A stretch of DNA of 64,000 bases from a virus (IMGVR_UViG_3300031992_000005:192001-256000); one strand, 5' to 3'; positions 25,701 through 59,264 are shown, counted from the stretch's first letter. Made by a program: numbers and translations. The notes: a model not told the origin generated them from the sequence alone.

Positions 25701-25702
25701 AA

Positions 25703-25885: not shown

Positions 25886-25987
25886 AAAAAAAAGAGAGGA
25901 TCTATCCGTCTCGGACCAATCCTCTAAAAATTATTTAACCTAAATATGATTGTTATGAATGTTTTACATATATAAGAGTTTAAGGGG
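25886..25987 (-). ncRNA. ORF-less promoter-to-terminator unit (sRNA candidate)
   Basis: The - strand reads CCCCTTAAACTCTTATATATG, then about 41 nt, then AGAGGATTGGTCCGAGACGGATAGATCCTCT, then T8. Confidence 0.45.
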
Positions 25988-25989
25988 AT

Positions 25990-26096
25990 AAAAAAAAGAG
26001 GATGACCTATCACAGGCGACCCTCTTCTTCAATAACAAAAATTTAAATCTTTAAATCTATGGATATAATATACAACATATATAAGGGTTTAAAGGG
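25990..26096 (-). ncRNA. ORF-less promoter-to-terminator unit (sRNA candidate)
   Basis: The - strand reads CCCTTTAAACCCTTATATATG, then about 50 nt, then AGAGGGTCGCCTGTGATAGGTCATCCTCT, then T8. Confidence 0.45.
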
Positions 26097-26098
26097 AT

Positions 26099-26202
26099 AA
26101 AAAAAAGAGGAGATCTATCCATCTCGGACTGATCTCCACCTGACATCTGAATATACATCATACTAAAATGAGAGTATTACACGTTAATAAGGAATTAAGG
26201 GG
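26099..26202 (-). ncRNA. ORF-less promoter-to-terminator unit (sRNA candidate)
   Basis: The - strand reads CCCCTTAATTCCTTATTAACGTG, then about 42 nt, then GGAGATCAGTCCGAGATGGATAGATCTCC, then T-run. Confidence 0.45.
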
Positions 26203-26204
26203 AT

Positions 26205-26298
26205 AAAAAAAAAGAGAATCTATCCATCTCGGACTGATCCTCTAATAAGAAACATTCTATTAATTCTTAAACTTTTACATATATAAGAATTTAAGGGG
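26205..26298 (-). ncRNA. ORF-less promoter-to-terminator unit (sRNA candidate)
   Basis: The - strand reads CCCCTTAAATTCTTATATATG, then about 34 nt, then AGAGGATCAGTCCGAGATGGATAGATTCTCT, then T9. Confidence 0.45.
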
Positions 26299-26301
26299 AT
26301 G

Positions 26302-26390
26302 AAAAAAAAAAAGAGAATCTATCCATCACGAACTGATCCTCTTCAGAGTAAAATAAACATTACACGTACATATATAAGGCATTTAAGGGG
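26302..26390 (-). ncRNA. ORF-less promoter-to-terminator unit (sRNA candidate)
   Basis: The - strand reads CCCCTTAAATGCCTTATATATG, then about 26 nt, then AGAGGATCAGTTCGTGATGGATAGATTCTCT, then T11. Confidence 0.45.
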
Positions 26391-28615: not shown

Positions 28616-30154
28616 CACTACTACATTGTGTTCAGGAGGCACGTTACATCTCCCGGTTCTCACTTAGCTAAAACTAAGATGAACTCCTACATATCTCTAT
28701 GCAGATCAGACTATATCTTAATCTCATTTCTGAGATTCTTACCGTTTCCACTTAACGATTTCAAGTGTACTCCCATTACTGGGATAGTCGTTGGGGTTTA
28801 AGAATTTAATCAGTTAGTCGGGCTGATTTTCTTTTATTTTTTGAATAAGGACATTACTGTCTGTAATTACTTCAGTGAAATATCCATATTTTTCGTAAAT
28901 TTTTATTTCATTAGTGAAATATAATAATGGTATATTATTTTTCTTAGCATAATCGTACTTCAGATGATCCCTTTTTATAGCAATTTCTGAATAACGTTTA
29001 TCGTTAGGATCAAAATGTTGACACCCATGATACTCTACTAAGATATTATATTCTGGTAAATAAAAGTCAAACCTAAGATGTGATATATTCTTTAAATCTG
29101 GGTAAGTTTTCTCAGATGTAAATTCAATATTATTTCCCGTAAATAGGTCTGCCAAAAATAGTTCCCCATTAGAGTTAATGAGCGGGAATATGCTATCTTT
29201 ATCATCATCAGATAATAATAAGAACCTATAATAGCAATTACGAAATCTTCTATAAAAATCCTTCCTAGATAGGATATTATTGTCAGCAATAAATACCTTA
29301 AAATCTTCTACCGTATTAATATTAGAGTAATCTCTATTATTGTTTGGTAATAGACTTTCTTTCTCCTCTTTAGATAAGAGTCTACTAAATCTGCAATATA
29401 CTTGCTCAAATCTACGACAAAGATCTATTCTGGAGGTTATATTATTTTCTTGAATAAATGAACGAAAATCCTCATATGTATTTATATACGAATAATCTTT
29501 TAGCATACTAGGGAGAATTCTATTTTGATCTTCACTACTCAATTTAATAAACTTATTATATCCTCCTCGAAATCTTTTTTGAAAATCATAACGGCCTACA
29601 ATTTCGTATGTTTTAATGAATTTCCTAAAATCATCCTCAGTATTCAAAGTAGAGTAATCTGCCTTTTTTATAGTTCCTTTATAAGGTAAAATAGTTTCTT
29701 GCTCTTCCTTTGATAGAAAGTTTAAGAACCTAAGATAAGCCCCAGGATATTCAGTATGTAATGTTTTTCGAGAGTGAATATTATTAGTTTTAATAAACCT
29801 TTTAAAGTCGTTTGCAGTATTGAGATTAGAATAATTACCTAAGTTCGAAGGCAGTAATTTTTCTTGTTCATCATTACTTAATTTCTTGAAGCAATTATAA
29901 ACCTTTCTATACTCCTCTCTCAGCCTAGACCTCTTCTCAATACCATTATCTTTTATAAATTTTTTTATTTCCTCATAATCCATTTTTTTTTTAAATTTTA
30001 ATTTTTTTCGTTCTTCTTAAACCTGCTGATTAACTCTATTCCCTAGATTGTTACTGCCGTGACTAAATCGGCTAGTACTAGAGACCTAACAAGTCTTTCC
30101 AGCATTTAGTAAGTTTGTTTTTCATAAGGTCACCCTTATGTGACACTAGTTTCT
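28616..30154 (-). mobile_element. group I intron 1a (1539 nt) carrying a homing-endonuclease ORF
   Basis: The - strand carries P AAATGCTGGAAAG (30095-30107), Q AATCAGCAGG (30022-30031), then the ORF, then R AACGACTATCC (28782-28792) and S AAGATATAGTCT (28708-28719). Follows exon-1 U30155 and ends in G28616. Confidence 0.7.
28814..29983 (-). CDS. intron-encoded homing endonuclease (PD-(D/E)XK / Vsr-DUF559-like nuclease with 5 N-terminal repeats)
   Basis: Five repeats of about 55 aa ([DN]YS.[LI]NT..DF..FI..N.I.SR....R[FY]...Y..F..LS..E[QK]..[IL]LP). C-terminus HLRFDFYLPEYNILVEYHGCQHF. Sits between Q and R of the intron. Confidence 0.65.
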   Translation of the reverse strand: MDYEEIKKFIKDNGIEKRSRLREEYRKVYNCFKKLSNDEQEKLLPSNLGNYSNLNTANDFKRFIKTNNIHSRKTLHTEYPGAYLRFLNFLSKEEQETILPYKGTIKKADYSTLNTEDDFRKFIKTYEIVGRYDFQKRFRGGYNKFIKLSSEDQNRILPSMLKDYSYINTYEDFRSFIQENNITSRIDLCRRFEQVYCRFSRLLSKEEKESLLPNNNRDYSNINTVEDFKVFIADNNILSRKDFYRRFRNCYYRFLLLSDDDKDSIFPLINSNGELFLADLFTGNNIEFTSEKTYPDLKNISHLRFDFYLPEYNILVEYHGCQHFDPNDKRYSEIAIKRDHLKYDYAKKNNIPLLYFTNEIKIYEKYGYFTEVITDSNVLIQKIKENQPD

Positions 30155-32828
30155 AGTTAATGTCAAAATATGTTAGTAATTGGTCATCCCCACCATATAT
30201 GATATTTCCATTTTTGTTCCGAATTGGAGCAGGAATTAAGCAATTTTTGACAGGGCTATGTGAGGGAATCGTATGAAAACTTGATGACCAGCGTTTACTT
30301 GATTTTTTGAGTACTTCGTATGGAGTAAAATTCTTCTTTACTGCTCCTGGTTCATCCGGATCTGCATCTCTAATTGGAATATGATGCTCATCTTCAATTA
30401 CCCATTTTGCCCTCTTATTAAACATTCCATCTGGACCTACATACACACTTAACATTTTCGCATGTTTCTTATATATGAGGTAGTTGAGTGTGAATTTTCT
30501 CATAAAGTAGAAATCATTACTGAGATCTACCTCAGGATCAAATGGGCTTTCATAATTTAAGTAATCACCCTGATACTCTGGAAAAAGTTGTGTTTGTGTG
30601 TTAAATCCAAGAAAATCTGTCCAAATTTCCTTTACTTTATCTGCGGTTTGATATAAAACTGTCTCTACACCTTTCACACTAACTTTTTTTCCAAGTTTAG
30701 GGCTACCATAAAATTCGAATGCTAGGTCAAATACTTTCTTCGGGTATAATGGGCTTTCGTATTCGCCATTACTGTCATAATACTTTTTCCATTCATCTAA
30801 CATTTCTTGATAACCTTCATCTATATCAGTAATACCTCTACTTGAATAGAATTTTGTTGTCTCAGGTAACTGCTGGATACTTTCTGACATGGCAGCTAAG
30901 AAAGCAGTTTTTCCTTTAAGTCCAGGAATGATAGGATTAACCATCATATCATATACGATTTTATCATTCTGTTCTGGACTAAGACACATGAAATAATTAT
31001 CAGATAGAAACTTAGAATACTCCAAGAGATCCATTTTCTTACCAAAGATATATATTTTCTCTGGGATATTATGAATATCCTTAAGCTGTTTTTTATTTAT
31101 TTTTTCCAGCTCAGTATATATCTTTCGATAATACATGTATTTCTCAAGTTCTATATGCTTCTTATTAATCTTTCCCTCTGAATCAAATTTAAGACTATCA
31201 ATTCCGAAGAGATGTATTGTTTTTTCTGCCAGGACCCCTAAGAATTTCTTTTTCCTAATAATACCTTCGTCGATCTTACCCTTTAACTTAACTTCGCTTG
31301 CAGCTTGTCTAACAAAATCTACGAATTTTTCTCCAAAGTCCTGTCCATATTTCATAACAAGTCCTCCCTCATTTAATCCAGTTTCTGTTGAATCTAGGTA
31401 ATCGAGATTACTTGTTAAGATATATTTTAAGATTTCAATTATATTACCTTGAAAAAAGTTTCCTTCTTCCAATAGTTTTACAGCAATTGGCTTATATCTC
31501 TTTATATTAGTAGCCAAGGATTGATGTTTTTGCATCTTTATCCAACAAAGAGCTCTAGTTGCCCAAGTACTAGACCAAGCCATCATCTCCTTACAATACT
31601 TTTCAAATCTAAGTCTGAATGGCTCATCTATATAGTGGCCATGTGACATAAGTCTTGCGCCAAGTCTCAGGTTATCTAAGAAAACGTTGAAACACTCTTC
31701 TGTATACTCAGACTTTTTCTTAAGATAAATCATAAGAGTATAGAATGAGTCAAGGCAGCAATACTTTCCTAAGATTTCACTTGGGATAGGCATGAATTGA
31801 TTTCCCCAATACTCTAAGATCAGTTCCTTAAATTCATCTTCATATCCAGGATATCTCTTACAAATTTCTCCCCATTCAGGAGTATTTGTAAAGTTTTCTG
31901 GGGTTACTTTTAATTCTAGGTGAATGTCCTTCTTAAGTTTACCAACTTCCTCCAATAGCATGTGTTCAATTAAGTCACTAAGTCTATCGAAGTCAGAATC
32001 CCAAACTTTCACACCAAGTACTCTTTGAGCAGTCCATTTGAGAGAGTAGTTCTTCTCATGTAATCCATCTAGTACATTAACGACGGATGCATCTGATAGT
32101 TCATATAAGTCAACTCCCATTATTCTATGACTAACCTGATACTCGAATTGTAGGTTATAAGTCCAGATATGTTTCATTCTCTTAGATAGAAATTTTGCCA
32201 GTTTATCTAAGACTGCCCTATACCCTTCACTAGACTCTCCTACTTCATGTCTCAAGTCCGTTAAGCTAATAAAAGCCGCTTCTTTTGCTGTAGATATTGC
32301 AAAACCTGATACAAAGAACACTTTCTCCATTGGCATTCCACTAGTTTCATAGTCAAATCCAAAGTCAGTGTCCAATGGTAATGAGTCTACGTAATCAAGG
32401 AACCTCAATGCATCAGTCACAGTGTGAATTACGCACCACTTGAAATCATGGTAATCAACCTCTCTTGTAAAACTTGGACTTATAAAGTCTTCTAAGAGAC
32501 CTGGAATCAATGCCTGTTGTACATCTACTGCACATCTAACATAAGCTCCGCCTTCTAAGGATACTCTATAAATTCTGGAACAATCGAAGTAATTTTCACC
32601 ACGAATACCAAAGTGATACCTTTCTCTCAGGTAACTGAAGGCTTTAGCGCCAATTAATAATGCACCATCCCCTTCACCAAGTGCAAGAAGATCATTTCTT
32701 TGTTCTTCGTCCATCTTCTCTAGAAGTTCTAGAGGATAGACTCCACAACTTAGTTTTAATCCATATAATCCCACATAATCGTGGCATTCTTCTGAACTAA
32801 CTAAAACTATCCTTTTATTCATAATCAC
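30155..32828 (-). CDS. DNA polymerase, family A - exon 1 (3'-5' exonuclease plus N-terminal polymerase part)
   Basis: 891-aa ORF with FGFDYETSG (ExoI), NLQFEYQ (ExoII) and YCCLDSFY (ExoIII). Ends ..LLTYFDIN at the start of motif A. T30155 of the in-frame TAG is taken as the last exon nt. Confidence 0.75.
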
Positions 32829-47261: not shown

Positions 47262-47562
47262 TAAGGTATTTGATTTTAGAAAAAAATTATTAGAATATTC
47301 TGAAAAAGCTAATAAAATTTCATTAGAAACTCCCTCAGGGGGTGATGTATGTACTACATTAGTGCATAACTTGGTGGATGAATTTGGAACTATTCAGAAT
47401 AAGAATAAACCATTTTCATTCAAGTTGGAAAAAGTAGGAGATGAAGTAATGTTTTCCTACGGAGAAAATCCTCCTGCTAAAGTTAGTGAGGTTAATAGTA
47501 AACCTATCCTACAAACATTGGGTACTTTTAAGGATATTCTTGAATTTTCAGGCGGACAATAG
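47254..47562 (+). CDS. hypothetical protein
   Basis: 102-aa ORF. The stop codon lies inside the terminator loop. Confidence 0.55.
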   Translation: MNSKVFDFRKKLLEYSEKANKISLETPSGGDVCTTLVHNLVDEFGTIQNKNKPFSFKLEKVGDEVMFSYGENPPAKVSEVNSKPILQTLGTFKDILEFSGGQ

Positions 47563-47575
47563 GTCCGCCTTTTTC
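47551..47575 (+). terminator. intrinsic terminator
   Basis: GGCGGAC aatag GTCCGCC followed by T5. CCTTATCTTTG follows, just before ATG 47587. Confidence 0.65.
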
Positions 47576-47586: not shown

Positions 47587-48126
47587 ATGAACAAATTACT
47601 TATATCAAGAGAATATCATAACAGTGCAATGGAAATAAATTTGGCACTAGACACATTATCAGTGCCTAAAATTGTTTTATATAAGTTAGATAAGTATTCA
47701 CGTACCGTCAAGTGGTGGAAGTTAGATAGTTGGTTAAATTGGAATTATTATCCGGAACATATAGATTTTGTAACAATAGATAATATATTTTTAACCATAG
47801 GTTATTTTAGCATGTATGAATGTAAGTACATGCCTATAAAAAAACTAACCGATAGAACTTCACTGCACTTGGCATATGCTTGTAGTAAAGAAGTAAAAAA
47901 TATAACAATTTATTATCAAAGCATGTATGAAACCTATCTAAAATTAAATAGCTTAGATAATCACCATGTGACTGTATTTAATACTAAAAAAGATCTTATT
48001 AATTTTCTGAGTGAGTTCTATAAATACATAAGGGCGGATGATGAATGCCTATATAATTTCATGTTAAATCTATTCCGAGCTAATCACCTGATAAATGAAA
48101 CTGTACCAAGAATACCGATAAAATGA
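47587..48126 (+). CDS. tandem paralog family, member 1 of 12
   Basis: 179 aa, divergent. Core DNIFLTIGY and C-terminus LNLFRANHLI sit at the family positions. Confidence 0.55.
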   Translation: MNKLLISREYHNSAMEINLALDTLSVPKIVLYKLDKYSRTVKWWKLDSWLNWNYYPEHIDFVTIDNIFLTIGYFSMYECKYMPIKKLTDRTSLHLAYACSKEVKNITIYYQSMYETYLKLNSLDNHHVTVFNTKKDLINFLSEFYKYIRADDECLYNFMLNLFRANHLINETVPRIPIK

Positions 48127-48620
48127 AAAGTGACATTAAAGGAAGATTAGTATTACTCATTACTGAACGCAAACAAGAACTTGATTTTAAATACTGCAGT
48201 GTATGGGTAACTATAGAGAACTTAGTTCTTTCTAATTCAGGTAGTTACATATTTAATGCAGGCAAAAAAGATTATCCAGCTAGAATTGAAATACCAACCA
48301 CAAATGCAGATAAGTATCAGGTAGATCCCCTAAATCTATTAAATATAGGAAGCAACTTAGGATATCACCTGGGGTGGATTTCATTACCACAGTTTAAGTG
48401 TTTTTCTAGATGGAATGCAAAAAAGTGGTCAGCCAATCCTAGGATACGAGACTATAGCTTATGTTTCGCAAGAATTCCTTGGGGAAGTAGAAAATACTAT
48501 ATTTATGAATTAACTGGGGATGAATTAGCTCAGCTTTTCAAAAATTATATTAATACGATGGATAGCTATGCTATTCGAAACATATTAACGGAAATATTGA
48601 AGTATAATAAAGTAATATGA
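48123..48620 (+). CDS. tandem paralog family, member 2 of 12
   Basis: 165 aa with an ATGA overlap. Weak family match (LLNIGSNLGY; C-terminus EILKYNKVI). Confidence 0.5.
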   Translation: MKSDIKGRLVLLITERKQELDFKYCSVWVTIENLVLSNSGSYIFNAGKKDYPARIEIPTTNADKYQVDPLNLLNIGSNLGYHLGWISLPQFKCFSRWNAKKWSANPRIRDYSLCFARIPWGSRKYYIYELTGDELAQLFKNYINTMDSYAIRNILTEILKYNKVI

Positions 48621-49153
48621 ATACTGAATTAATCGTCTATAAAGATTACACTTCTACTAATAACTTTATTTATTTTATAAATTTCAATAAATTCAAAATC
48701 CCGATTGATCTATTAGATAACTCTCATTTGTGGGGAAACAGAATAATTATATCATCCTCTACAGCAATAGGTAAGCAGGTATTATCGGATAACTATCATA
48801 GATTGTACTTGGAAGAGTTTCCAGATATTGCCTTTTGCTTAGGCCAAAGTCCCAGTAATTTTAAGCACATGACTAAACGACAGTTGCATCTTAAGTTTCT
48901 GGGGAATCCTCGTTTTCTTGCTTCAACAAGCCAAGTATTCTATCGAAATTTTAAATGGAAATATTCGACAGGTGCACCTTGGGATTTATCAAGGAGTAGT
49001 ATATTCTTGTTTCAATCTTTACCATTAGATAAATGGTTCGTAGGTAAAATAATTTATGATTACCTATTCCGCGTTAAATTGCGTAATTGCACTCTTCCAG
49101 AAGATCTTAAAATCGCAGAACGCATATTTAACCTGAATGAGTGTTATGAATAG
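48617..49153 (+). CDS. tandem paralog family, member 3 of 12
   Basis: 178 aa with an ATGA overlap. N-terminus ELIVYKDY..FKIPIDLL; C-terminus AERIFNLNECYE. Confidence 0.55.
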   Translation: MNTELIVYKDYTSTNNFIYFINFNKFKIPIDLLDNSHLWGNRIIISSSTAIGKQVLSDNYHRLYLEEFPDIAFCLGQSPSNFKHMTKRQLHLKFLGNPRFLASTSQVFYRNFKWKYSTGAPWDLSRSSIFLFQSLPLDKWFVGKIIYDYLFRVKLRNCTLPEDLKIAERIFNLNECYE

Positions 49154-49580
49154 TGTTGAATTGACTCTATTTAAGAGATATGACGAAACTCATATGATTA
49201 TATATTTCCTAAAATTCGGGAAAATTACTTTACCTAATATCTCAAACCCTGTACGTGAAGTTTACTTAGACATTGGATTTGAATATTACAGGACTAAACA
49301 TGTTACATTAAGATATCTTCTGAACAACTTAGATTCGATCGTATATCGCTTTTCATTACCTAAGTTCAGGGGATACAATCAGGTAATCAGAAAGTTTAAA
49401 GTCTATAAAGACCCATTCCAAGTTATTTACTTAAAGGGGAAAGCTCTGGATAATGTATTAGAAAATTATCTTCAAGTAATCGATGATTGTTTAGAATATA
49501 CTAGTGTGAAAGAATATTCATTAATCAGGGACATTATCGTATGTAATCGAACCAATGATACAAGAACTATATATTATTAA
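49137..49580 (+). CDS. tandem paralog family, member 4 of 12
   Basis: 147 aa with a 17-nt overlap. Core EVYLDIGFEYY. Confidence 0.5.
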   Translation: MSVMNSVELTLFKRYDETHMIIYFLKFGKITLPNISNPVREVYLDIGFEYYRTKHVTLRYLLNNLDSIVYRFSLPKFRGYNQVIRKFKVYKDPFQVIYLKGKALDNVLENYLQVIDDCLEYTSVKEYSLIRDIIVCNRTNDTRTIYY

Positions 49581-50010
49581 TCTATTCGCAGTTAGAGATT
49601 TATACATGCACTATAAACGCTTATTGATTCCAAAATTATTTATATCTGCAGAAAAAAACGGTAGCTATAGAATTGGGGGTTATAAAAAAGATGACACATC
49701 TTCACTATTGGAAGTGAAAGACGTATATCTATATATGGGTTTTCATTTCTATGAAAATGATAAGGAAACCCAAACTATGAAATTCCTATCCCCTAGGAAA
49801 GTAAAAAACCTAATTTTTACATACCGTCCGGGTGCTGGGATTGGTAGATTTTATAAGAGTTTATTACCTACACCAACATATAGGTATTATCAAAAGACTG
49901 AATTAACGCCAGATCAGCTAGTTTATCTTAACCATATATATGTTCAAAATACAGCAAACGGTATCAGAGAAAAATTTCAGGAAATATTTAAACTGAATAA
50001 TATATGGTAG
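49555..50010 (+). CDS. tandem paralog family, member 5 of 12
   Basis: 151 aa. DVYLYMGFHFY, ELTPDQLVYL, C-terminus QEIFKLNNIW. Confidence 0.6.
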   Translation: MIQELYIINLFAVRDLYMHYKRLLIPKLFISAEKNGSYRIGGYKKDDTSSLLEVKDVYLYMGFHFYENDKETQTMKFLSPRKVKNLIFTYRPGAGIGRFYKSLLPTPTYRYYQKTELTPDQLVYLNHIYVQNTANGIREKFQEIFKLNNIW

Positions 50011-50483
50011 AACTATGTATTTTTAAGGGAAGTGTATTCCGGAGTTTCCTAGATATATACTTATATTTCTCTGAATTAAAAATTCCTGAGGTTTTTTTAT
50101 CTAGTACAGCTAAGAAAGTAGAAATTTTATCCGAATCCTCTACTAATTCTGATGAGATACTAACCTTCAATAATCTTTACCTGAGAATAGGTTATGTATA
50201 TAGTTCACAGGAAAGAATAAAGTCAATAACTTATAATTATTTTAAGAAAAAAATGTTAGGTAATCTATCACATGCAGTAGCAACAGAACTACTCTATGAT
50301 ATTCCTAGAACACCTTATTCATTTCCATTTCAGAGAATACAGATACCAGATGAATTGGTAGGTAGTATATTGAAACTTCATATTGAGCAGCTCTACTCCT
50401 TAGATATGTCAGAATACACTAGTGTATATAAAAAATCCGTTCATAGATGTGAGGAAATATTTAAACTGAATGATATATGGTAG
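50004..50483 (+). CDS. tandem paralog family, member 6 of 12
   Basis: 159 aa. MVELCIFKG.., ELKIPEVF, NLYLRIGY, C-terminus EEIFKLNDIW. Confidence 0.65.
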   Translation: MVELCIFKGSVFRSFLDIYLYFSELKIPEVFLSSTAKKVEILSESSTNSDEILTFNNLYLRIGYVYSSQERIKSITYNYFKKKMLGNLSHAVATELLYDIPRTPYSFPFQRIQIPDELVGSILKLHIEQLYSLDMSEYTSVYKKSVHRCEEIFKLNDIW

Positions 50484-50959
50484 AACTATGTATCTTTAAG
50501 GGACATTCAAACTTTTTTCCAGCTCTTATGTTAGATATATATTTACATTTCTCTGAATTAAAAATTCCTAAGGTTTTTATATATAGTACATATGAGAAAG
50601 TAGTAATTTTATCTGACTCCTCTACTAATTCTAATGATGAGATACTAACCTTTAATAATCTTTACTTGAAGATAGGTCATATATCTAGTTCACAAGAAAG
50701 ATTTAAACAAATGACCTACAATTACTTTAAGAAAAAGATGTTAGGTAATCTATTATACGCTATGGCAACAGAACTTTACCGTGATATTCCAAAAGAACTC
50801 TTCTTATTTCAGGAAATACAGATACCAGGTGAATTGGTAGGTAGTATATTGAAACACTACATCGAGCACTTTTATTCTACGGAGAGCGTACTTGGTGATA
50901 TATATATTAAATTCACCCGTATATATGAAGAGATATTTAAACTGAATAATATATGGTAG
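50477..50959 (+). CDS. tandem paralog family, member 7 of 12
   Basis: 160 aa. MVELCIFKG.., ELKIPKVF, NLYLKIGH, C-terminus EEIFKLNNIW. Confidence 0.65.
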   Translation: MVELCIFKGHSNFFPALMLDIYLHFSELKIPKVFIYSTYEKVVILSDSSTNSNDEILTFNNLYLKIGHISSSQERFKQMTYNYFKKKMLGNLLYAMATELYRDIPKELFLFQEIQIPGELVGSILKHYIEHFYSTESVLGDIYIKFTRIYEEIFKLNNIW

Positions 50960-51447
50960 AACTATGTATAAATAAAACAGGTGTAGATATATTCCCAGTC
51001 CGTTGGCATCAGCTAGATATATATTTATGTTTTTCTGAAATAAAAATTCCCAGGATTTTTATTTCTAGTATGGAGAAGACCGTAGAAATTTCACCAGAAT
51101 CTCCTACTCATTTTAACGATGACATATTAATCTTCAACAATATTTATTTGAAAATAGGTTATATATATAGTTTACGAGAAAGAGTGAAACTAGTGACTTA
51201 CAATTACCTTAAGAAAAAGATGTTGGATGATATGTCATCGTTGATGGCAAAAGAACTGCGCTATAATTTCCCAGAAACATCCTATTCTTTTCAGAGAATA
51301 CGACTACTAGATAAAGAAATAGAAAGTATATTGAAACATCACATCGAGTATCTTTACGCTATGAAGAACGTACTTGGTTATCTATATACTAGATATGTTT
51401 GTAGATATGAAGAAATATTCGAACTAAATGGATTATTATGCAAGTAG
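50953..51447 (+). CDS. tandem paralog family, member 8 of 12
   Basis: 164 aa. MVELCINK.., EIKIPRIF, NIYLKIGY, C-terminus EEIFELNGLL. Confidence 0.65.
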   Translation: MVELCINKTGVDIFPVRWHQLDIYLCFSEIKIPRIFISSMEKTVEISPESPTHFNDDILIFNNIYLKIGYIYSLRERVKLVTYNYLKKKMLDDMSSLMAKELRYNFPETSYSFQRIRLLDKEIESILKHHIEYLYAMKNVLGYLYTRYVCRYEEIFELNGLLCK

Positions 51448-51893
51448 AGTTGCGTACGTATTTGGAAGAATATAGTACCCATGTTTATTTAAGATTTCCC
51501 ACATTCAAGTTATACCATCGTTACGTTATTGAGCACAACGACGGATATCATATAGCACAAAACTCGGTGGTGTGGAGAAACCATATAATAGTAGAACAAA
51601 ATTTATATCTATTTCTAGGTGTAAAACCGTATCACGACTATAGACCAATTAAATTACAAACACGAAGACAAGTATATAATATGTTGGGACAAATATTTCA
51701 GCCTGGATTTGTTGGTCTTAGAAAAAATAATGATCACTTAGAAAAGGATTACTTTGTAAAAATAACCCTACCTGAAGAAAAAAGAAATGAAGTAGTGAAA
51801 TCACTAGTACAGAATCTTGTGCGTAATAATATTAATACTACTGCTATAGAGCAATTTAAGGAATTGCTTAAATTAAATGGTATACTTATATGA
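51438..51893 (+). CDS. tandem paralog family, member 9 of 12
   Basis: 151 aa. NLYLFLGV; C-terminus KELLKLNGILI. Confidence 0.6.
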   Translation: MQVELRTYLEEYSTHVYLRFPTFKLYHRYVIEHNDGYHIAQNSVVWRNHIIVEQNLYLFLGVKPYHDYRPIKLQTRRQVYNMLGQIFQPGFVGLRKNNDHLEKDYFVKITLPEEKRNEVVKSLVQNLVRNNINTTAIEQFKELLKLNGILI

Positions 51894-52384
51894 AAGAAGA
51901 TATTGTAGCTAAGTTAGTTATATCTAAAGGAACTTTTTCATACTGTTTAGCAGTTAATGATATAATCGTCCCAAAAGGATGTTTTGGTAATATGCTATTC
52001 TGTGTTTATAATGATGATGAAGAAAGATTCCGTAGTCTCTCTCCCGAGTTCTCAGGGAAATTACAAGGAACAGCCCATTTACGCCTGGGAACTATAAAAG
52101 AGAGATGTAAGTATATAACTAAACGGTCATTATTTAATATAATAAAGACCTCTCCATATATACACTCCCGTTTCTTTGTTAGTAATATGCAGGTAGCAAG
52201 TTTTCAAACTATATCACTAACTGAAACTGAATTATTAGACTTAGGTTCAATTCTTTTGGGGAAAATGAGAAACCATGTTACAGAGTATTATACTCCGAAT
52301 TATGAAGCTATATTTATAGCAAACGGGATATTTAAGAAAGAAGTATTTACTCCAATAACACCATATTGGAATTATGGCAGCTAG
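51890..52384 (+). CDS. tandem paralog family, member 10 of 12
   Basis: 164 aa with an ATGA overlap. HLRLGT, SLTETELLDLG, EAIFIANGIF. Confidence 0.6.
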   Translation: MKEDIVAKLVISKGTFSYCLAVNDIIVPKGCFGNMLFCVYNDDEERFRSLSPEFSGKLQGTAHLRLGTIKERCKYITKRSLFNIIKTSPYIHSRFFVSNMQVASFQTISLTETELLDLGSILLGKMRNHVTEYYTPNYEAIFIANGIFKKEVFTPITPYWNYGS

Positions 52385-52865
52385 GTTAGTGTTGATTAGG
52401 TATATTGAAGATGCTATTGACTATTACCTAATGTTAGATAAAATAACTATTCCTAATTCAGCTTTAGCGACATCCGGTATTAACTTAGTTGGTTCAAATG
52501 AAGAATGGTACCTATATTTAAAAGATAATGCAGTCAATGAAATACGGAAAACGACTACTGTATTTCTTTGTCGAAGTTATAGAAATATATATAAATATAC
52601 TACTAAACGCCTTTTTTATAAGTGGCTTAGAACGACTGGCTTATATAACATAAACTCAGAACCAATATTCTATGCTCACCTAAATCATTACCAGGAAGAG
52701 ATCTTTCAATCAATCCCCCTAACAAAAACAGAACTAGAAACAATCGGAACCCTGTTTTTGGAAAGACTTTTAGATAAAACTAGGTGTTACTATACCTCGG
52801 AATTTAATGAACGAAAAGAAAAGTATGAAATACTTTTTAAAGCAAATGGGATGTATAAAAAATGA
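52374..52865 (+). CDS. tandem paralog family, member 11 of 12
   Basis: 163 aa. IPLTKTELETIG; YEILFKANGMYKK. Confidence 0.6.
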   Translation: MAARLVLIRYIEDAIDYYLMLDKITIPNSALATSGINLVGSNEEWYLYLKDNAVNEIRKTTTVFLCRSYRNIYKYTTKRLFYKWLRTTGLYNINSEPIFYAHLNHYQEEIFQSIPLTKTELETIGTLFLERLLDKTRCYYTSEFNERKEKYEILFKANGMYKK

Positions 52866-53359
52866 GCGCTACTTTATTTATAGTTAAACATCCGGGTCCT
52901 CGCTCCATCTTTAATTATATTATACTGTTTGATGAAATCATTATACCAGAGGATGAGCTGGTCCGGGAGTGTATCATGATTTATGATAAACAGAATGACG
53001 CATATAAATGGCTAGCTGAGGAAACTCGTCCAGGAAAATATAAGGGAAATATTGCATTAAATATAGGTCGTGGACCAAGTAGAACTAAATTTCTGACTAA
53101 AAATATAGTTTTTAATTGGTTAAAGACTAGCAATCAGCTTAATAATTTTCCAAGATTCCTGATCAGATTAGATAAGGATTTTTGTTATTCATGGGAATAT
53201 ATATTTCAAACTATACCTTTGACAGGGGATGATCTTATTAAGATCGGAACTCGCCTTATTGATTATCCTCCTTACGAAGATATTAATAGGTATCGTTCTA
53301 CAGAATCATATAGAATTCTTTTCTCAGCAAACGGTTTATTTCCTCCCATAAATCCCTAA
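52862..53359 (+). CDS. tandem paralog family, member 12 of 12
   Basis: 165 aa with an ATGA overlap. IALNIGRG, IPLTGDDLIKIG, YRILFSANGLF. Confidence 0.6.
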   Translation: MSATLFIVKHPGPRSIFNYIILFDEIIIPEDELVRECIMIYDKQNDAYKWLAEETRPGKYKGNIALNIGRGPSRTKFLTKNIVFNWLKTSNQLNNFPRFLIRLDKDFCYSWEYIFQTIPLTGDDLIKIGTRLIDYPPYEDINRYRSTESYRILFSANGLFPPINP

Positions 53360-53365
53360 TTCCTT

Positions 53366-55597
53366 ATGAATGTGTGTAAAATTAATGATAAAATGACAAA
53401 AAAGGAAAAAGTTATCAAATTATCGAGAGCCTTAGAACAACTTAAACAAGAGTTCGTAGGACTCGATTCTATTATTGATGAAATAGGAAAAAGTATTTCA
53501 ATCTGGTATATCACACCAGAACTCCTAACAAGACCTGCAGTTGTATCTCTTTGGGGAATGACAGGTACAGGAAAAAGCAGTGTGGTTAGGAGATTGATAG
53601 AGATACTAGATCTGAGGGGAACTTCTGCATTTCTCGATTGTGGAGAATACCTAGCTGAAGGAAAGAATATGGCTTCAGACCTATGTGATATGCTTAGCAT
53701 CTCAGAAGAATCTCTAGACTCTAAGGTAGATATACCAACGGATACCATAATAGCACTTGATGAATTTCAGTATGCTAGAACACTAAATGAAGCCGGAGAA
53801 GAGGTAACTAAAGCAACTCTCCGACCAATTTGGAGTTTGATTGATACTGGAATAATTTCAATCAATGAGTATTATTCTTGGGGATTCTCTAATGCTTCTG
53901 CCTTTATAGATGATTTTTCTATGTTTGTAAAAATGAAACCTGATGCAAAGATAGAGAAGAATTGTCTTACACAAAAAGAAGATGTAAGAATTCTGCTTGA
54001 GACATTAGGCCTTATCTACTATAATAATAGATACCTACAAACTATAAAGGACGGAACAGCTAACTCTGAGGTAGCGAAGTTAATCGAGGGTATGGATCTC
54101 GAAGAGGAAAAGCCTATATCATCTATGGAAGATGAACTCCTGGGCAATAACAATGCAGATAAGGATGATCCGTATCGGCCAATAAATGTTCTCTTAGATG
54201 AACATATTAGGTCTATTATCAAGAGACTCACAAACTGTAAGAGAACAGATCTTGCAAAAGAATTACTGACTTGTAGTTTTACTGCTGAAGAGTATCTTGA
54301 AAAACTTCAAGCAATAAAGAAATTAATATCAGTTCCTAGAGAGCTTAATCTTAGTAAGTCATTAATATTTATTATCGGAAACTTGGATGAAGCTTTTGGA
54401 ATTCAGGGAAAAACAAATCCTGACTTTGATGCTGATGTTTTTAATGAAATAACTAATGAAGTCAGTATTCAAGATATAAAATCTGCACTGAAGGATAGAT
54501 TTAGAGCAGAACAAATTGCTAGACTTGGCAATAATCTCATTAAATACCCAACACTACGAAGAGAGCATTTCCAGATCATTATTGAAAGAGAAGTGAACAG
54601 ACTGGTTAATGAATTTATGAGAATATCTCCAGGAATGATAAATTCAATAGAGATTGATCAAAAATTCTACGAACTTCTCTATTCAGAGGGTGTTTATCCT
54701 GTTCAGGGAGTTAGACCTGTATTTACAACAATAAATTCAATGATAACTCCAATCTTCAGTACAATCTTAATTGAAAAAGAAGATGAAGAAAAGGATATAA
54801 CAATAAGTGTTAAAGAAGATTTGTTTAATGTAGATAAGGTAACTATCTCCGTTAAGTTCTCTGGGAAACAGGATAGGGTTGTAGAATTTCCTTTAGCCTT
54901 ACAATTAGGATCACTTAGAAATCCTAAGAATAGAAATACTAGATTTGCAGCAGGTATCCACGAAGCAGGTCATGCAGTAGTATTCTCTTATCTAACAGGA
55001 GAACTACCTAAAGTGATTAACGCCATCTCCGTAGATGGTGGAGGATTCTGTACAACATATAGGAAAGATAAGGTTAGAAATAGAGAAGATGTGGACAATG
55101 ATGTAATGATAAGTATGGCTGGATTCTTGTCTGAATCACACTTCTTTAGCCAAAGTAAAATCCTATTAGGTAGTAAGTCTGATATTAATCAGTATTGGGA
55201 TTATTTCAAGACTGCTGTAGGGAAATGTGGATACTTCGAACCTGTACCATTTACCTTATATGAAGCTGATTCTTCTAGTGAGATACCGGATGGTGGTTTT
55301 GATATTACAAAGACACATGTACGATATTTTAATGGCCATGAAACTACTAGTGAATTATTGACAGTAGAACAAGCCATGATTAGAAGAATACAGGATCTAC
55401 AGAGAGATACTGAAGCCATAATAGCAAAAGAGGAAAGACTTATTAAGGAAGTTGGTATTAGATTAGGTGAAAAGGGAATTATTAGACCCGATGAATTCCT
55501 AAGCTTAGTGAAGGAATTTGGAGTAGGGATAGATATTTCAACAAAAAAGAAAGAAATGTCTAATAACTACTACGAAAATAAATTGAAAGGTCTATGA
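53366..55597 (+). CDS. soluble AAA+ ATPase fused to M41 (FtsH-like) zinc metalloprotease
   Basis: Walker A WGMTGTGKSS and Walker B IIALDEFQ. C-terminus AAGIHEAGHAVVF (HExxH), ..MAGFLSE.., GSKSDINQ, as in the FtsH protease domain. No hydrophobic N-terminal segments. Confidence 0.7.
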   Translation: MNVCKINDKMTKKEKVIKLSRALEQLKQEFVGLDSIIDEIGKSISIWYITPELLTRPAVVSLWGMTGTGKSSVVRRLIEILDLRGTSAFLDCGEYLAEGKNMASDLCDMLSISEESLDSKVDIPTDTIIALDEFQYARTLNEAGEEVTKATLRPIWSLIDTGIISINEYYSWGFSNASAFIDDFSMFVKMKPDAKIEKNCLTQKEDVRILLETLGLIYYNNRYLQTIKDGTANSEVAKLIEGMDLEEEKPISSMEDELLGNNNADKDDPYRPINVLLDEHIRSIIKRLTNCKRTDLAKELLTCSFTAEEYLEKLQAIKKLISVPRELNLSKSLIFIIGNLDEAFGIQGKTNPDFDADVFNEITNEVSIQDIKSALKDRFRAEQIARLGNNLIKYPTLRREHFQIIIEREVNRLVNEFMRISPGMINSIEIDQKFYELLYSEGVYPVQGVRPVFTTINSMITPIFSTILIEKEDEEKDITISVKEDLFNVDKVTISVKFSGKQDRVVEFPLALQLGSLRNPKNRNTRFAAGIHEAGHAVVFSYLTGELPKVINAISVDGGGFCTTYRKDKVRNREDVDNDVMISMAGFLSESHFFSQSKILLGSKSDINQYWDYFKTAVGKCGYFEPVPFTLYEADSSSEIPDGGFDITKTHVRYFNGHETTSELLTVEQAMIRRIQDLQRDTEAIIAKEERLIKEVGIRLGEKGIIRPDEFLSLVKEFGVGIDISTKKKEMSNNYYENKLKGL

Positions 55598-55604: not shown

Positions 55605-55736
55605 AAAAGGCCTTAAAACCTTATATGTAGAGAAGCAAAACAAAAGATAATTTCCCGCTCTCTATATATTCAACGAGAGCTCCCTAAAATAAAGAATGAG
55701 TTTACAATACATTAGGGAGCTTTCTCTTTTTTTTTT
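55605..55736 (+). ncRNA. ORF-less promoter-to-terminator unit, long form (about 105 nt transcript)
   Basis: AAAAGGCCTTAAAACCTTATATGTAG, then helices GCTCTC/GAGAGC and GAGCTCCCTA/TAGGGAGCT, then T10. Confidence 0.45.
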
Positions 55737-55738
55737 CT

Positions 55739-55842
55739 AAAAACCCCTTAATGCCTTATATATGATTAGTAAACGCTTTATGACAAAACAACATCAGTCA
55801 ATAGGAGATCACCTGTGATAGGCATATCTCCTATTTTTTTTT
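55739..55842 (+). ncRNA. ORF-less promoter-to-terminator unit (sRNA candidate)
   Basis: AACCCCTTAATGCCTTATATATG, then 39 nt, then GGAGATCACCTGTGATAGGCATATCTCC, then T9. Confidence 0.45.
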
Positions 55843-55943
55843 CATCCCCTTAATGCCTTATATATGTAAATTTTCCATATTAAAATTGTTATTTGTTAAT
55901 AGGGAAGGGATCGGTCCGTGAGGGATAGATCCCTAATTTTTTT
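55843..55943 (+). ncRNA. ORF-less promoter-to-terminator unit (sRNA candidate)
   Basis: CATCCCCTTAATGCCTTATATATG, then 41 nt, then GGGATCGGTCCGTGAGGGATAGATCCC, then T-run. Confidence 0.45.
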
Positions 55944-56046
55944 ATCCCTTTAAACCCTTATATATATAAGATACTCATAATAGATTTGTTTAAGGTTAAA
56001 AATTTTTTGGAGGATCGCCTGTGATAGGTATATCCTCTTTTTTTTT
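55944..56046 (+). ncRNA. ORF-less promoter-to-terminator unit (sRNA candidate)
   Basis: ATCCCTTTAAACCCTTATATATATAAG, then about 38 nt, then GGAGGATCGCCTGTGATAGGTATATCCTC, then T9. Confidence 0.45.
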
Positions 56047-56143
56047 ATACCCCTTAAATGCCTTATATATGTTAATAAATCAGTTATTTTTATTATATTA
56101 GTTAAACAAGGGGTCAGTCCGTGATGGATAGACCCTTTTTTTT
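56047..56143 (+). ncRNA. ORF-less promoter-to-terminator unit (sRNA candidate)
   Basis: ATACCCCTTAAATGCCTTATATATG, then 38 nt, then GGGGTCAGTCCGTGATGGATAGACCC, then T8. Confidence 0.45.
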
Positions 56144-56234
56144 ATTCCTCTTAAATCCTTATTAAGGAATACTCTCATTTTTAAGTTTAGTTATTAGGGG
56201 ATTAGTCCGGGATGGATAGATCTCCTATTTTTTT
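56144..56234 (+). ncRNA. ORF-less promoter-to-terminator unit (sRNA candidate)
   Basis: ATTCCTCTTAAATCCTTATTAAGG, then about 29 nt, then GGGGATTAGTCCGGGATGGATAGATCTCC, then T7. Confidence 0.4.
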
Positions 56235-56316
56235 ATTCACTATGTCACATGTTAGTAATTTAGTTTGACGAGAGAGGTCAGAGTCTGAGATAGATATAGG
56301 CCTCTTATTTTTTTTT
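56235..56316 (+). ncRNA. degenerate unit (hairpin plus T-run, no clear promoter motif)
   Basis: AGAGGTCAGAGTCTGAGATAGATATAGGCCTCT followed by T9. Confidence 0.3.
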
Positions 56317-56428: not shown

Positions 56429-56463
56429 GCTTTTTGCCAAAAAAGCCGTTGAGAGATCTCTAG
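56429..56463. repeat. inverted repeat, left arm (about 35 bp)
   Basis: GCTTTTTGCCAAAAAAGCCGTTGAGAGATCTCTAG. The reverse complement recurs at 57048..57083 with about 4 mismatches. Confidence 0.8.
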
Positions 56464-56640
56464 AAAATATATATTATATGTTTTAAGATTTTTAGCCAAA
56501 AAAATAATATAAAATTGGAAAATTCTATTGAATATTTAATAGAATTAACCATAGAAATATTATAAAATTTCTATATTTTTTATTTTTCAAAAATCGATAG
56601 CCATAAAAATATATTAAAAATATTATAAAAATTATAATAT
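56464..56640 (+). repeat. direct repeat copy 1 (about 175 bp, AT-rich, 3 iterons)
   Basis: ..ATATATTATATGTTTTAAGATTTTTAGCCAAAAAAATAA.., ..AACCATAGAAATAT.., ..AAAATCGATAGCCATAAAAATAT.. are collinear with copy 2. Confidence 0.7.
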
Positions 56641-56653
56641 AAGCATTCCATAG

Positions 56654-56827
56654 GGATCTCTCCTTTCAGTCAAGATCCACTCCAGCTAAAGCTGGGGAGT
56701 ACTAATTGAAAGAGATTAGAATTTCTTCAAGTTCTTAGAGAGAAAAAATATATAATATCTTCTCTTAGTAATTCCCAGGAATCCCAAAGGGATTTCTGAA
56801 CTGGATGCCGACTGAAAGGAGGTATCC
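56654..56827 (+). other. central structured element between the direct repeats
   Basis: Closing helix GGATCTCTCCTTTCAGTC / GACTGAAAGGAGGTATCC. Internal hairpins CTCCAGC taaa GCTGGGG and GAATCCC aaa GGGATTT. Higher GC than the flanks. Confidence 0.45.
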
Positions 56828-56867
56828 GTTGTATGTATGATATATTTAATATAAAATCAATAAAAGC

Positions 56868-57047
56868 TAAAAATATATTATATATAGTTTTAAGATTTTT
56901 AGCCATAAGAATGAATAGGAATTGAAGAAATTTACCGTATATTTGTATATTTCAGCCATAGAAATAAATAGAAATTACTATGTTTTTTATATCTTAAAAA
57001 ATCGATAGCCATAAAAATAAATAGATTTTATTAATAGTTTTCAATAT
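56868..57047 (+). repeat. direct repeat copy 2 (about 180 bp, AT-rich, 3 iterons)
   Basis: ..ATATATTATATATAGTTTTAAGATTTTTAGCCATAAGAATGA.., ..CAGCCATAGAAATAA.., ..AAAATCGATAGCCATAAAAATAA... Confidence 0.7.
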
Positions 57048-57083
57048 CTCCAGAGATCTCTGAACGGCTTTTTTTCAAAAAGC
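57048..57083. repeat. inverted repeat, right arm
   Basis: CTCCAGAGATCTCTGAACGGCTTTTTTTCAAAAAGC. Confidence 0.8.
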
Positions 57084-57155
57084 AGTATTTTTGGAGTTCA
57101 TGGGAAGTATATCCCTTAATTATATAATACTTCAATAAAAATTAATTTAATAGTT

Positions 57156-59264
57156 ATGAAAATCGAAACATTAGTAGTTCCAAAAGGAATTAGATTTCTC
57201 AGTGATTGGAAAGATTATGGTTTAGAAAAATTTCCATTCAAGCATATTTTAAATAAAACAATTACAGGTTGTGGATTTACAGAATACTGTATTCACTGTA
57301 ACCTTAATATTATTCTCTGTTCTCCAAGAAAAATTCTATTAGAGAATAAAGAAGATCAAAATAGTAATTTAGTTTTTTATGCTAGAAATTTATATGAACC
57401 TATAACAAATTATGAACAAGATCTAACAAAAGAAGTAAAAAGATTAGGTTCTATAAATGGAAACTATAATTTCGAAACAGAAGAGAAAAAGAAAGAGAGG
57501 CTAGAGAAAGAAAAGAAACTTAAAGAAAAGAGAGAAGCTGCAGTATTACAATTAAAAGAATCTGTAGTAAACTATTGGAGATCTTGTCAAGAAACTCCTT
57601 TCAATGAAGCCAAACCTTGTAAGATATTGGTAACATATGATTCCTTCAGACATGTCAAGGAAGCCTTAGGAGAAGATATAGAAAAATTCTACATTGTAGT
57701 TGACGAAATGCAGTCAATTTTGGTTGACTCACGCTTCAAGTCAGACTCTGAAGTAGAGTTCGTGAAAAGAACCGAAGACCTAGAAAAGGTTTGTTTTGTT
57801 TCAGCTACGCCAGTTATGGAAAAATATCTAGATATGCTAGATGAATTCAAAGATCTTCCTTATTATAGATTAGACTGGCAGTTAGAACAACCCGATAGGG
57901 TAGTTCATCCTAAAATTAATATTGGATACTTAGGTTATGGCGGGTCTATTCAAGCAGAGATAAAGAAATTAATTAACAAATATAGATCTGATAAGGGACC
58001 CGTTTATAGAAAAGTTGACCCAATAACAGGAGAAATAAAAGAGATAAAGTCTAGGGAAGTGGTTATTTATGTAAATTCTGTGAAAGATATATGTAAAGCC
58101 ATTAAGCAAAATAAACTGACCTTAGATGAATGTAACGTACTTGTAGCTAAGACAGATAAAAATGATAAAGACCTACGAAAAGTATTTAAAATAAGAAAGA
58201 AAAAGAATATTGATTTTTGTTGTATAGGTAAAGTTCCCGGTAAAAATGATCCCAGAAAAATGTTTACATTCTGTACTAGAACTGTATACCTTGGTGCAGA
58301 TTTTTACTCAGATAATGCTCAGACGTTTGTATTTAGTAACGCTAACATAGATTCCCTAAGTGTAGATATTTCTATGGATTTACCACAAATCTTAGGCAGA
58401 CAAAGATTAGATGAAAATCCGTGGAAAAGAGAAGCCACTGTATTTATCACTCTAAAATTAGGTAGATTAACTAAAGAAATGTTTGAGAAGACCTTAGAGC
58501 AAAAAATAAAAACAACGAAGTATTATTTGAAGCTTTATAACATGTCTTCCCAAGAACTAGGTGAGGAGGAAAAATTTATAAGACTCATTAAAGTAAATAT
58601 AAAAGCTTTATATTATTCACAAGACTATGTTTCCATAGATAATCATTCCGGTAAATCACCTAAACTGGCATTTAATAACTTAGTATTAATTTCTGATATG
58701 AGAGCTTTTGAAGTTCAACAAATGAATTATGCTAATAGGTTTACAGTATTCTCTGAACTAAATCAGCAAAATTTTTCAGTAATATTAAATAACGATAAGG
58801 TCAGAGATTTATTATCCGGTTATCAAAAGCTAACTGTATTTGAAGATAGAATGAAGTTTCTTTATGAAGTACTAGAGAAAAATAAAGATAATAAAGAATT
58901 ATCAAAGTCTCTTGTAGAATCTTTTCCAACCGAACTTCAAGGTTATTTTAATGTCCTTAGCATGAAAGAAATTAGGTCAACTTCCTTTAGAAAAAATAGA
59001 TTAGAAACTATTATTAAGAACAAATTAGCTATCAAAGATGCAGAACGACTAGTAAAAAAATTAGATGAAAACTTTGTTATAGGTAAATTTTATACGAAGG
59101 CTATAGCAAGAGAAATTCTTGGGAAAATATTCGATGAGATTGGATATAAGAAAAAAGCAAGGGCATCAATGCTAAGTGAGTGGTATAATATAAAATACAC
59201 GACTCAATATGATAGCAATTCAAAGACATCTGTTTCAGGAATTTTAATCATTTCTAAGCTTTAA
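57156..59264 (+). CDS. SF2 helicase-like protein with degenerate Walker A
   Basis: 702 aa. ITGCGFTEY sits where GxGKT is expected. YIVVDEMQS is DExQ-like and CFVSATP is motif III-like. Confidence 0.45.
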   Translation: MKIETLVVPKGIRFLSDWKDYGLEKFPFKHILNKTITGCGFTEYCIHCNLNIILCSPRKILLENKEDQNSNLVFYARNLYEPITNYEQDLTKEVKRLGSINGNYNFETEEKKKERLEKEKKLKEKREAAVLQLKESVVNYWRSCQETPFNEAKPCKILVTYDSFRHVKEALGEDIEKFYIVVDEMQSILVDSRFKSDSEVEFVKRTEDLEKVCFVSATPVMEKYLDMLDEFKDLPYYRLDWQLEQPDRVVHPKINIGYLGYGGSIQAEIKKLINKYRSDKGPVYRKVDPITGEIKEIKSREVVIYVNSVKDICKAIKQNKLTLDECNVLVAKTDKNDKDLRKVFKIRKKKNIDFCCIGKVPGKNDPRKMFTFCTRTVYLGADFYSDNAQTFVFSNANIDSLSVDISMDLPQILGRQRLDENPWKREATVFITLKLGRLTKEMFEKTLEQKIKTTKYYLKLYNMSSQELGEEEKFIRLIKVNIKALYYSQDYVSIDNHSGKSPKLAFNNLVLISDMRAFEVQQMNYANRFTVFSELNQQNFSVILNNDKVRDLLSGYQKLTVFEDRMKFLYEVLEKNKDNKELSKSLVESFPTELQGYFNVLSMKEIRSTSFRKNRLETIIKNKLAIKDAERLVKKLDENFVIGKFYTKAIAREILGKIFDEIGYKKKARASMLSEWYNIKYTTQYDSNSKTSVSGILIISKL

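Follow-up and report, generated by a model that had tools for sequence, protein, structure and literature searches.

The 64,000-nucleotide stretch of viral DNA IMGVR_UViG_3300031992_000005:192001-256000 (the window) carries, on its + strand between positions 47587 and 53359, a tandem array of twelve small open reading frames (ORFs; m1 to m12) that ends 6 nt before the gene for a 743-residue AAA+/M41 protease (53366-55597). By comparison of profiles, this array probably descends from a single-copy gene, encoding 152-199 residues, that in the nearest huge-phage clades immediately precedes the gene for the same protease. The small proteins may be adaptor-like specificity partners of the protease, with the twelve copies partitioning or widening its target set; this statement, taken as a whole, is quite possible, and we put it forward tentatively.

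All twelve ORFs (147-179 codons) were found where the preliminary description of the window had placed them, on one strand and consecutively overlapping, by 4, 4, 17, 26, 7, 7, 7, 10, 4, 11, and 4 nt from m1 to m12. That description had also taken them for one paralogous family. When a hidden Markov model (HMM) built from eleven members was searched against 130 window ORFs and 600 shuffled decoys, 11 of the 12 held-out members were recovered at E ≤ 4e-4 and m2 was marginal (0.035 versus 0.075 for the best decoy); the position, size, and coupling of m2 agree with family membership. These leave-one-out models revealed no further member among the other window ORFs. By BLASTP, the members formed subclusters of m5-m8, m10-m12 (25-28% identical, E 1e-11 to 1e-14), and m3/m4/m7. 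Members are less similar the farther apart they lie (Mantel p = 0.0065), and the sequences at the m5/m6, m6/m7, and m7/m8 junctions are near-identical, from which we conclude that the array arose by stepwise tandem duplication; it is an old expansion of one family by such duplication together with unequal crossing-over. Members m6-m8, which had been singled out as the most recent copies, are indeed the youngest (Table 1). The proteins have no transmembrane segment, are rich in aromatic residues, and are mostly basic (pI 8.5-9.5; 6.2-7.6 for m6-m8).

Sister phages retain the array with limited changes in copy number, a variation that the preliminary description had proposed to look for. One relative (L002, 98% DNA identity to the window) has all twelve genes and the protease, and three others (L079, L080, and L081, 81-87% identical) have eleven array genes each; in these three, the m6-m8 triplet is represented by two genes, fitting a one-unit alignment difference. 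Across 11 ortholog pairs between the window and L080, amino acid identity was 61-88% and the ratio of nonsynonymous to synonymous substitution rates (dN/dS) was 0.17-0.48, compared with 0.06 for the protease (96.4% identity) and 0.10 for the upstream 102-residue gene (95% identity). The dN of the array was ∼4-15 times that of the protease. The frames are intact in several independently assembled sister phages, and the dN/dS values across the 11 pairs indicate that the ORFs are translated and constrained. Purifying selection thus maintains every copy, although the copies evolve several times as fast as the neighboring genes. When dN/dS was pooled over the predicted fold, loops were the least constrained elements (up to 0.81) and core strands and helices the most (0.12-0.3). 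In a separate observation, dS between the window and L080 varied ∼4-fold among array members, from 0.22 (m8) to 0.95 (m11), with 0.30 for the protease; this spread hints at recombinational exchange or gene conversion of single cassettes between phage lineages.

The relatives of the array were sought in 73 viral and 80 metagenomic protease loci, which had to be collected with an alignment query, since a single protease sequence found none. At first pass, the array HMM gave no significant score against ORFs within 7-10 kb of the protease in these loci, and other clades showed no paralog array next to it. As a comparable array, five small ORFs around the protease of the main gut clade were considered and rejected, as they are not mutual paralogs. 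The flanking genes differ between protease clades and synteny around the protease is fluid. The first-pass negative is weak because, at the dN of the array, orthologs would be unrecognizable by sequence at 40% protease identity. When 599 ORF families from 155 loci were ranked with the array HMM, the nearest clades (42-43% protease identity) had the ORFs just upstream of their proteases at ranks 2, 4, and 7, so that three of the 22 "upstream" families were in the top ten (p = 0.004). Further near relatives (L169, L167, and L168) were then fetched as a prospective test. The upstream ORF of L169 scored 12.7 bits against the array HMM (E 0.004 at family-level database size) and that of L167 scored 4.9 bits; L168 had no small ORF upstream of the protease.

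The single-copy upstream family, with members in L086, L169, L167, L087, L001, and L088, is related within itself (E 7e-5 for L086 and L087, 5e-8 for L087 and L088, 6e-5 for L167 and L169). Each locus has one copy, on the same strand, that either overlaps the protease start by 13-14 nt (L086 and L169) or lies 40-67 nt away. A joint alignment with the array keeps an invariant Lys, K-x-x-T-x-[RKN]-x-[ILV], [YW]-E-[ED]-I-[FC]..N, and an N-terminal hairpin signature (LFIQFPTIKA in L086, VYLRFPTFKL in m9). Using hhalign, the 28-sequence array alignment matched the upstream family with a probability of 74% and E 2.7e-5 over 76 in-register columns, including the invariant Lys. A further profile-profile run gave 34%, with an observed score of 30.7 versus 9.4 ± 1.7 for column-shuffled controls. 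As a specificity control, 155 other flanking families were compared with the array profile; their median probability was 0.12% and the 95th percentile 0.72%, the outliers being solely sub-clusters of the upstream family. A first candidate upstream profile that included L104 aligned poorly (6% probability), and L104 was dropped. The single-copy gene is itself fast-evolving: between L087 and L001 it is 82% identical while the protease is 98.4% identical, and where the proteases share 50-54% identity, its own falls to 23-30% or below detection. The array family shows how fast partner genes can drop below sequence detection.

Given a probable single-copy homolog at the same place, just before the protease gene, in the nearest clades, the array would be younger than the link to the protease. 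The preliminary description had counted it against its proposal if the family occurred elsewhere with neither an array nor protease linkage. A probable homolog without an array does exist, but it still lies immediately upstream of the protease, and because it keeps that place outside the array the link is strengthened. In L010 (12474-14674, +), four small ORFs (140, 133, 178, and 220 residues) follow the protease on its strand; the 133-residue ORF was the best non-upstream match to the array HMM (12.0 bits; hhalign 6.7-9%) and may be a very distant relative placed downstream.

Several observations weigh against this descent and against a partner role for the array. The hhalign probability of 74% lies below the usual bar of 90-95% and was only 22% with a 12-sequence array alignment, and the alignment of the two families covers the N-terminal two-thirds alone. 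Jackhmmer searches from the single seeds L086, L001, and m9 found no link, though they are underpowered, with m9 missing its own paralogs; the reciprocal upstream-family HMM gave weak enrichment, with shuffled decoys scoring equally high. The near clades L085 and L168 have no detectable copy within 4-8 kb of the protease, and in all more distant clades the genes upstream of the protease are unrelated by sequence, so that the protease can evidently work without a recognizable partner. Pooled per-region dN/dS did not exceed 1 in any region, so that there is no sign of positive selection or of an arms race. No promoter was identified for the array block: the abundant motif CCTTAANNCCTTATATAT is absent from its strand there, and sigma-70-like matches were not above chance. 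A terminator cuts the block off from the upstream genes. Lastly, we infer the function of the array from position and evolutionary pattern only.

The protease contains Walker A (GMTGTGKS, residues 64-71), Walker B (IIALDE, 128-133), and HEAGH (532-536) motifs. It has no transmembrane anchor (maximum Kyte-Doolittle 19-residue score of 1.42), and the AAA+ module begins at about residue 15. When a profile built from 28 family members was compared with Protein Data Bank (PDB) chains, ∼residues 500-710 matched the M41 domains of FtsH and YME1 (E 1e-9 to 1e-11), and residues 11-134 and 333-471 matched the D2 ATPase and D2-small domains of ClpC, ClpB, ClpE, and Hsp104 (ClpC/ClpB D2 E 6.5e-10 at profile positions 353-471; positions 11-134 matching ClpE). 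With the single sequence, the Pfam M41 score (26.2) was under the gathering threshold of 29.9, and PF00004 (classical AAA) was below threshold at E 0.005. These profile matches identify a soluble fusion of a Clp/Hsp100-D2-like unfoldase and an FtsH/YME1-type M41 zinc protease, which is not a typical FtsH. Of the earlier designation as a soluble AAA+/FtsH-like protease, the M41 HEAGH domain and the lack of anchors hold, but the ATPase is of the Clp/Hsp100 D2 type and "FtsH-like" fits the protease domain only. The protein resembles FtsH and YME1 in having a C-terminal M41 domain fused to an ATPase, hence being an ATP-dependent zinc protease; it differs from FtsH in the missing anchors, in an ATPase with a ClpB-type D2-small domain in place of the FtsH-type AAA module, and in an extra segment of roughly 150-200 residues. 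This segment (∼135-330, between Walker B and the sensor-1 region) had no match to a solved Clp/FtsH chain when the profile was compared with the PDB; probably an inserted domain, it offers a candidate docking site for partners or substrates.

Relatives of the protease number at least 975, many of them on IMG/VR viral contigs of 200-430 kb, and contigs as long as 354 kb carry the identical 743-residue protein, which makes the source a huge phage, with record names suggestive of cattle rumen assemblies; the AAA+/M41 protease is a conserved core gene of a large group of uncultured huge phages. None of 50,697 deposited phage genomes gave a tblastn match to the protease. FtsH-like proteins, the role of which is not known, have been noted in the cultured jumbo phages MIJ3 and PA5oct (PMC6892783). 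A 130-residue ORF (53356-53748, −) lies antisense to the most conserved N-terminal part of the protease gene and has "homologs" in 30 loci; it is almost certainly a shadow ORF rather than a gene. In L168 (positions 1-419, −; contig SRR16767932_27494), a ClpB-like two-ring protein (full length, 909 residues) is encoded ∼3.6 kb from the AAA+/M41 protease, so some phages of the group carry more than one Hsp100-type machine.

Neither the array family nor its predicted fold matches anything described. Scans of array members against Pfam, PHROGs (eight members tested), NCBIfam, and PADLOC yielded nothing above chance (two single-member PADLOC matches, at E 0.008 and 0.03, were at chance level), and the family profile matched no PDB sequence, in agreement with the earlier remark that no known domain could be recognized. 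No match was found in the 50,697 deposited phage genomes by megablast of the 9-kb block or tblastn of m12. Searched exhaustively with HMMER against 1.84 billion cluster representatives, the family profile returned 10 proteins, each a one-to-one ortholog (61-97%) of a window member and all from the same phage lineage. AlphaFold2 models based on shallow paralog-plus-ortholog alignments were confident for m7 and m12, as judged by the predicted local distance difference test (pLDDT) and the predicted template modeling (pTM) score (Table 1). Both models have the same order of elements: a long N-terminal β-hairpin, three further strands, a helix with the invariant Lys at its start, then another two strands and, at the C-terminus, two helices. 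Foldseek found no neighbor for either model in the PDB (best E 0.58-0.7) or for m12 in BFVD (best E 0.048), with template modeling scores ≤ 0.27; a well-known fold, which would have counted against the earlier proposal, was not matched. The family consists of small, soluble, mostly basic α/β proteins that, apart from the single-copy upstream gene as a probable relative, have no detectable relative or fold neighbor outside the lineage. With two concordant models that lack a PDB neighbor (m12 also lacking one in BFVD), the predicted structure would be a new fold whatever the function of the proteins.

A specificity-partner role is favored because the gene stays beside a slow-evolving protease yet changes fast, as expected of a subunit that faces a variable outside partner. 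In the mechanism we propose, the small protein would partner the protease, most likely as a specificity factor, with one conserved face docking on the unfoldase (e.g., on the extra segment at residues 135-330) and variable loops binding a changeable target, presumably host proteins. The partner gene would have been amplified in this lineage and its copies would have diverged, and the resulting panel would widen or partition the targets that are fed to, or shielded from, one conserved unfoldase-protease. The preliminary description had listed a panel of adaptors among its options; this reading gains support from the single-copy, protease-adjacent counterpart, but not from L085, L168, and all the distant clades, where no copy was detected.

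The main rival, which has a modest chance of being correct, is that the array forms a protease-independent panel of diversified host-interaction or counter-defense effectors and adjoins the protease only by way of a common early/middle operon. It draws on proteins that are fast-evolving but constrained, on copies retained one-to-one between sister phages, which implies non-redundant roles, on a dynamic copy number in a family confined to one lineage, and on the otherwise fluid synteny around the protease. Precedents exist in T4 Ip1-3 (PMC12373910) and in the tandem amplification of tifA under toxIN pressure (PMC9391042), and such a panel accounts for the diversification as well as the partner model does. 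It is less easily reconciled with a probable homolog that stays protease-adjacent across clades in which the proteases are ∼50-54% identical and the surroundings are reshuffled, a pattern that is hard to obtain without a functional tie. Moreover, the defense library gave no matches, the predominantly basic proteins are not acidic DNA mimics, and no site class had dN/dS above 1.

Positional conservation and tight coupling would equally be seen if the small proteins were clients or regulators of the protease (substrates for timed degradation as a developmental clock, competitive decoys, or inhibitors), an explanation we consider improbable. Their conserved termini (the N-terminal strand and the C-terminal E-x-I-F-x-x-N) could serve as recognition tags, and phage inhibitors of host AAA+ proteases exist, with lambda CIII inhibiting host FtsH and T4 PinA inhibiting Lon. 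A pure regulator of a slow protease is, however, expected to be slow as well, which is at odds with the several-fold higher dN of the array; it is not obvious why one enzyme would need twelve non-redundant inhibitors or decoys, and the conserved C-terminal motif is predicted to be part of a packed helix rather than a free tail. It is still more improbable that these are structural or otherwise unrelated proteins, such as virion or inner-body paralogs or replication accessory factors, and that their similarity to the upstream family is spurious. Paralogous families of head and inner-body proteins do occur in jumbo phages, the array comes after a replication module (ThyX, helicases, and DnaB), and the homology probability is under 95%; against this, there was no structural match in PHROGs (eight members) or, for the m12 model, in BFVD, no virion genes are nearby, and the homology signal is highly specific relative to the 155 controls and extends to L169 in the added test loci. 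That the ORFs are chance frames or decaying duplicates would suit their lack of database homologs outside the lineage, but is effectively refuted by the constraint on all 11 ortholog pairs, the intact frames in independently assembled sister phages, and the confident, concordant structure predictions.

If specificity partners is what they are, the small proteins would be comparable to ClpS, SspB, MecA, and RssB, the adaptor proteins of bacterial AAA+ proteases. The proposed likeness lies in a small soluble protein binding to an unfoldase, the substrates of which it selects or modulates; in addition, the single-copy homolog is encoded beside its protease as clpS is beside clpA. The array differs from these adaptors in having no sequence or fold similarity to them (Pfam, NCBIfam, PDB sequences, and Foldseek), and we know of none that occurs as a 12-copy diversified tandem array. 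Poxviruses and giant viruses have multigene families of substrate adaptors (ankyrin/F-box-like and BTB-Kelch) and gene "accordions" that are tandem and diverging and probably turn a degradation machine toward varied host targets. Their partner is the ubiquitin system of the host, whereas here the unfoldase-protease would be the phage's own, and the folds are unrelated. The T-even internal proteins offer a further parallel as several small, diversified, non-redundant, and clustered proteins, each directed at a different host-factor variant; T4 Ip1-3 each block a different GmrSD (PMC12373910). They are a model for the retention of many diverged copies because of that specificity. Unlike the array members, they share an N-terminal capsid-targeting signal, are packaged and injected, and are not paralogs with one fold over their full length; the array has no PHROG match (eight members) and no head genes nearby, and a capsid-targeting leader was not searched for explicitly. 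For T4 tifA, experiments have shown that recombination expands the gene under host pressure (PMC9391042). The array described here, with copies 10-30% identical, is old and stable and no transient amplification.

The coordinates of the array, the protease, and the elements that bound them are collected in Table 1. As previously noted, a terminator lies directly before the block and only 6 nt separate the m12 stop codon from the protease ORF. The terminator-like hairpin overlaps the stop codon of the upstream 102-residue ORF, thus forming the 5' boundary of the block, and the m1 ATG follows 16 nt past it. No comparable terminator was found within the array/protease block, the next ones being stacked 3' of the 743-residue gene. 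Array and protease are probably translated, with termination-reinitiation coupling, from a single polycistronic read-through message. Contig ends were considered as transcript ends and ruled out; they fall on the m6-m8 repeat and on the downstream repeat units and are assembly breaks. An Rfam scan of 45-58 kb gave no match.

Table 1. Features of the array/protease block (positions in the window; leave-one-out E values are from the HMM test, and dN/dS values are from the comparison with L080).
Feature	Coordinates	Strand	Description
Intrinsic-terminator-like hairpin	47550..47570	+	AGGCGGAC-AATAG-GTCCGCCT and T-run; 8-bp stem with 6 GC pairs
m1	47587..48126	+	179 residues; divergent; leave-one-out E 4e-4; L080 ortholog 86% identical; dN/dS 0.17
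m2	48123..48620	+	165 residues; most divergent; leave-one-out E 0.035 (best decoy 0.075); dN/dS 0.23
m3	48617..49153	+	178 residues; leave-one-out E 3e-9; dN/dS 0.32
m4	49137..49580	+	147 residues; leave-one-out E 3e-11; dN/dS 0.33
m5	49555..50010	+	151 residues; leave-one-out E 4e-10; dN/dS 0.30
m6	50004..50483	+	159 residues; recent triplet; 66% identical to m7; no counterpart in the 11-copy sister phages
m7	50477..50959	+	160 residues; recent triplet; AlphaFold2 pLDDT 86, pTM 0.82
m8	50953..51447	+	164 residues; recent triplet; 50-52% identical to m6 and m7; dN/dS 0.26
m9	51438..51893	+	151 residues; leave-one-out E 8e-5; N-terminus VYLRFPTFKL, the array's nearest to the single-copy upstream family
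m10	51890..52384	+	164 residues; rank 2 of 1694 with the upstream-family HMM
m11	52374..52865	+	163 residues; m10-m12 subcluster
m12	52862..53359	+	165 residues; AlphaFold2 pLDDT 81, pTM 0.80
Soluble AAA+/M41 protease	53366..55597	+	743 residues; HEAGH
3' operon boundary	55611..56240	+	stacked ∼100-nt units of promoter-like motif, hairpin, and T-run

The window as a whole (∼33% G+C, four tRNA genes) has the gene content of a very divergent phage replication region; it encodes ThyX, two helicases besides a DnaB-like one, a DNA polymerase, and an HNH endonuclease. The motif CCTTAANNCCTTATATAT occurs 19 times, compared with 0.18 expected, and is missing from the + strand across 26.4-55.6 kb. Its sites form clusters at 55611-56240 (+) and 25124-26387 (−) and are also found at 11348, 19073, 19871, 20002, 20768, 21296, and 24275 (−). 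The genes for tRNA-Lys and tRNA-Arg and several ORFs have the motif immediately upstream on their own strand, and both clusters are composed of ∼100-nt units in which the motif is followed by ∼50 nt and a hairpin with a T-run. It looks like a phage-specific promoter for arrays of very short transcription units, possibly small RNAs.

An AT-rich non-coding stretch (56440-57090) separates the protease operon from the next gene (702 residues, 57156-59264) and contains ∼407-nt direct repeats (56480-56625 and 56887-57033) and long inverted repeats (56432-56464 with 57049-57081, and 56654-56685 with 56796-56827). The 702-residue gene also adjoins the protease in L005 and is found in 10 other protease loci. 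The sole other sizeable tandem paralog pair of the window lies at 15060-16082 and 16091-17041 (340 and 316 residues, 30% identical, E 2e-36), and two short ORFs at 49-517 also match weakly (E 8e-6). An HNH/homing-endonuclease-like gene (28814-29983, −) adjoins the divergent DNA polymerase gene (30153-32828, −), a layout typical of mobile endonucleases in large phages.

Lineage-specific expansion of accessory genes is a familiar general phenomenon in large viruses. In the literature searched, we found no report of a small, fast-evolving gene paired with the Clp-like/M41 protease of huge phages, or of the amplification of such a gene to 11-12 copies. A fast-evolving gene that is fixed before the protease and multiplied twelve-fold in one lineage provides a handle on the targets of that protease. 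The broadest interpretation, which is unlikely in its entirety, is that huge phages possess a self-contained, retargetable degradation system in which a conserved Clp-like/M41 protease is combined with a fast-evolving specificity subunit of unseen fold, present here in 11-12 versions for different host proteins of defense or housekeeping. If true, this would be the prokaryotic-virus counterpart of the adaptor families by which eukaryotic viruses redirect ubiquitin ligases. Were the panel model to hold, the array and protease would constitute the first phage-encoded degradation machine with exchangeable specificity subunits, and would represent a new route along which phage host range or counter-defense evolves.

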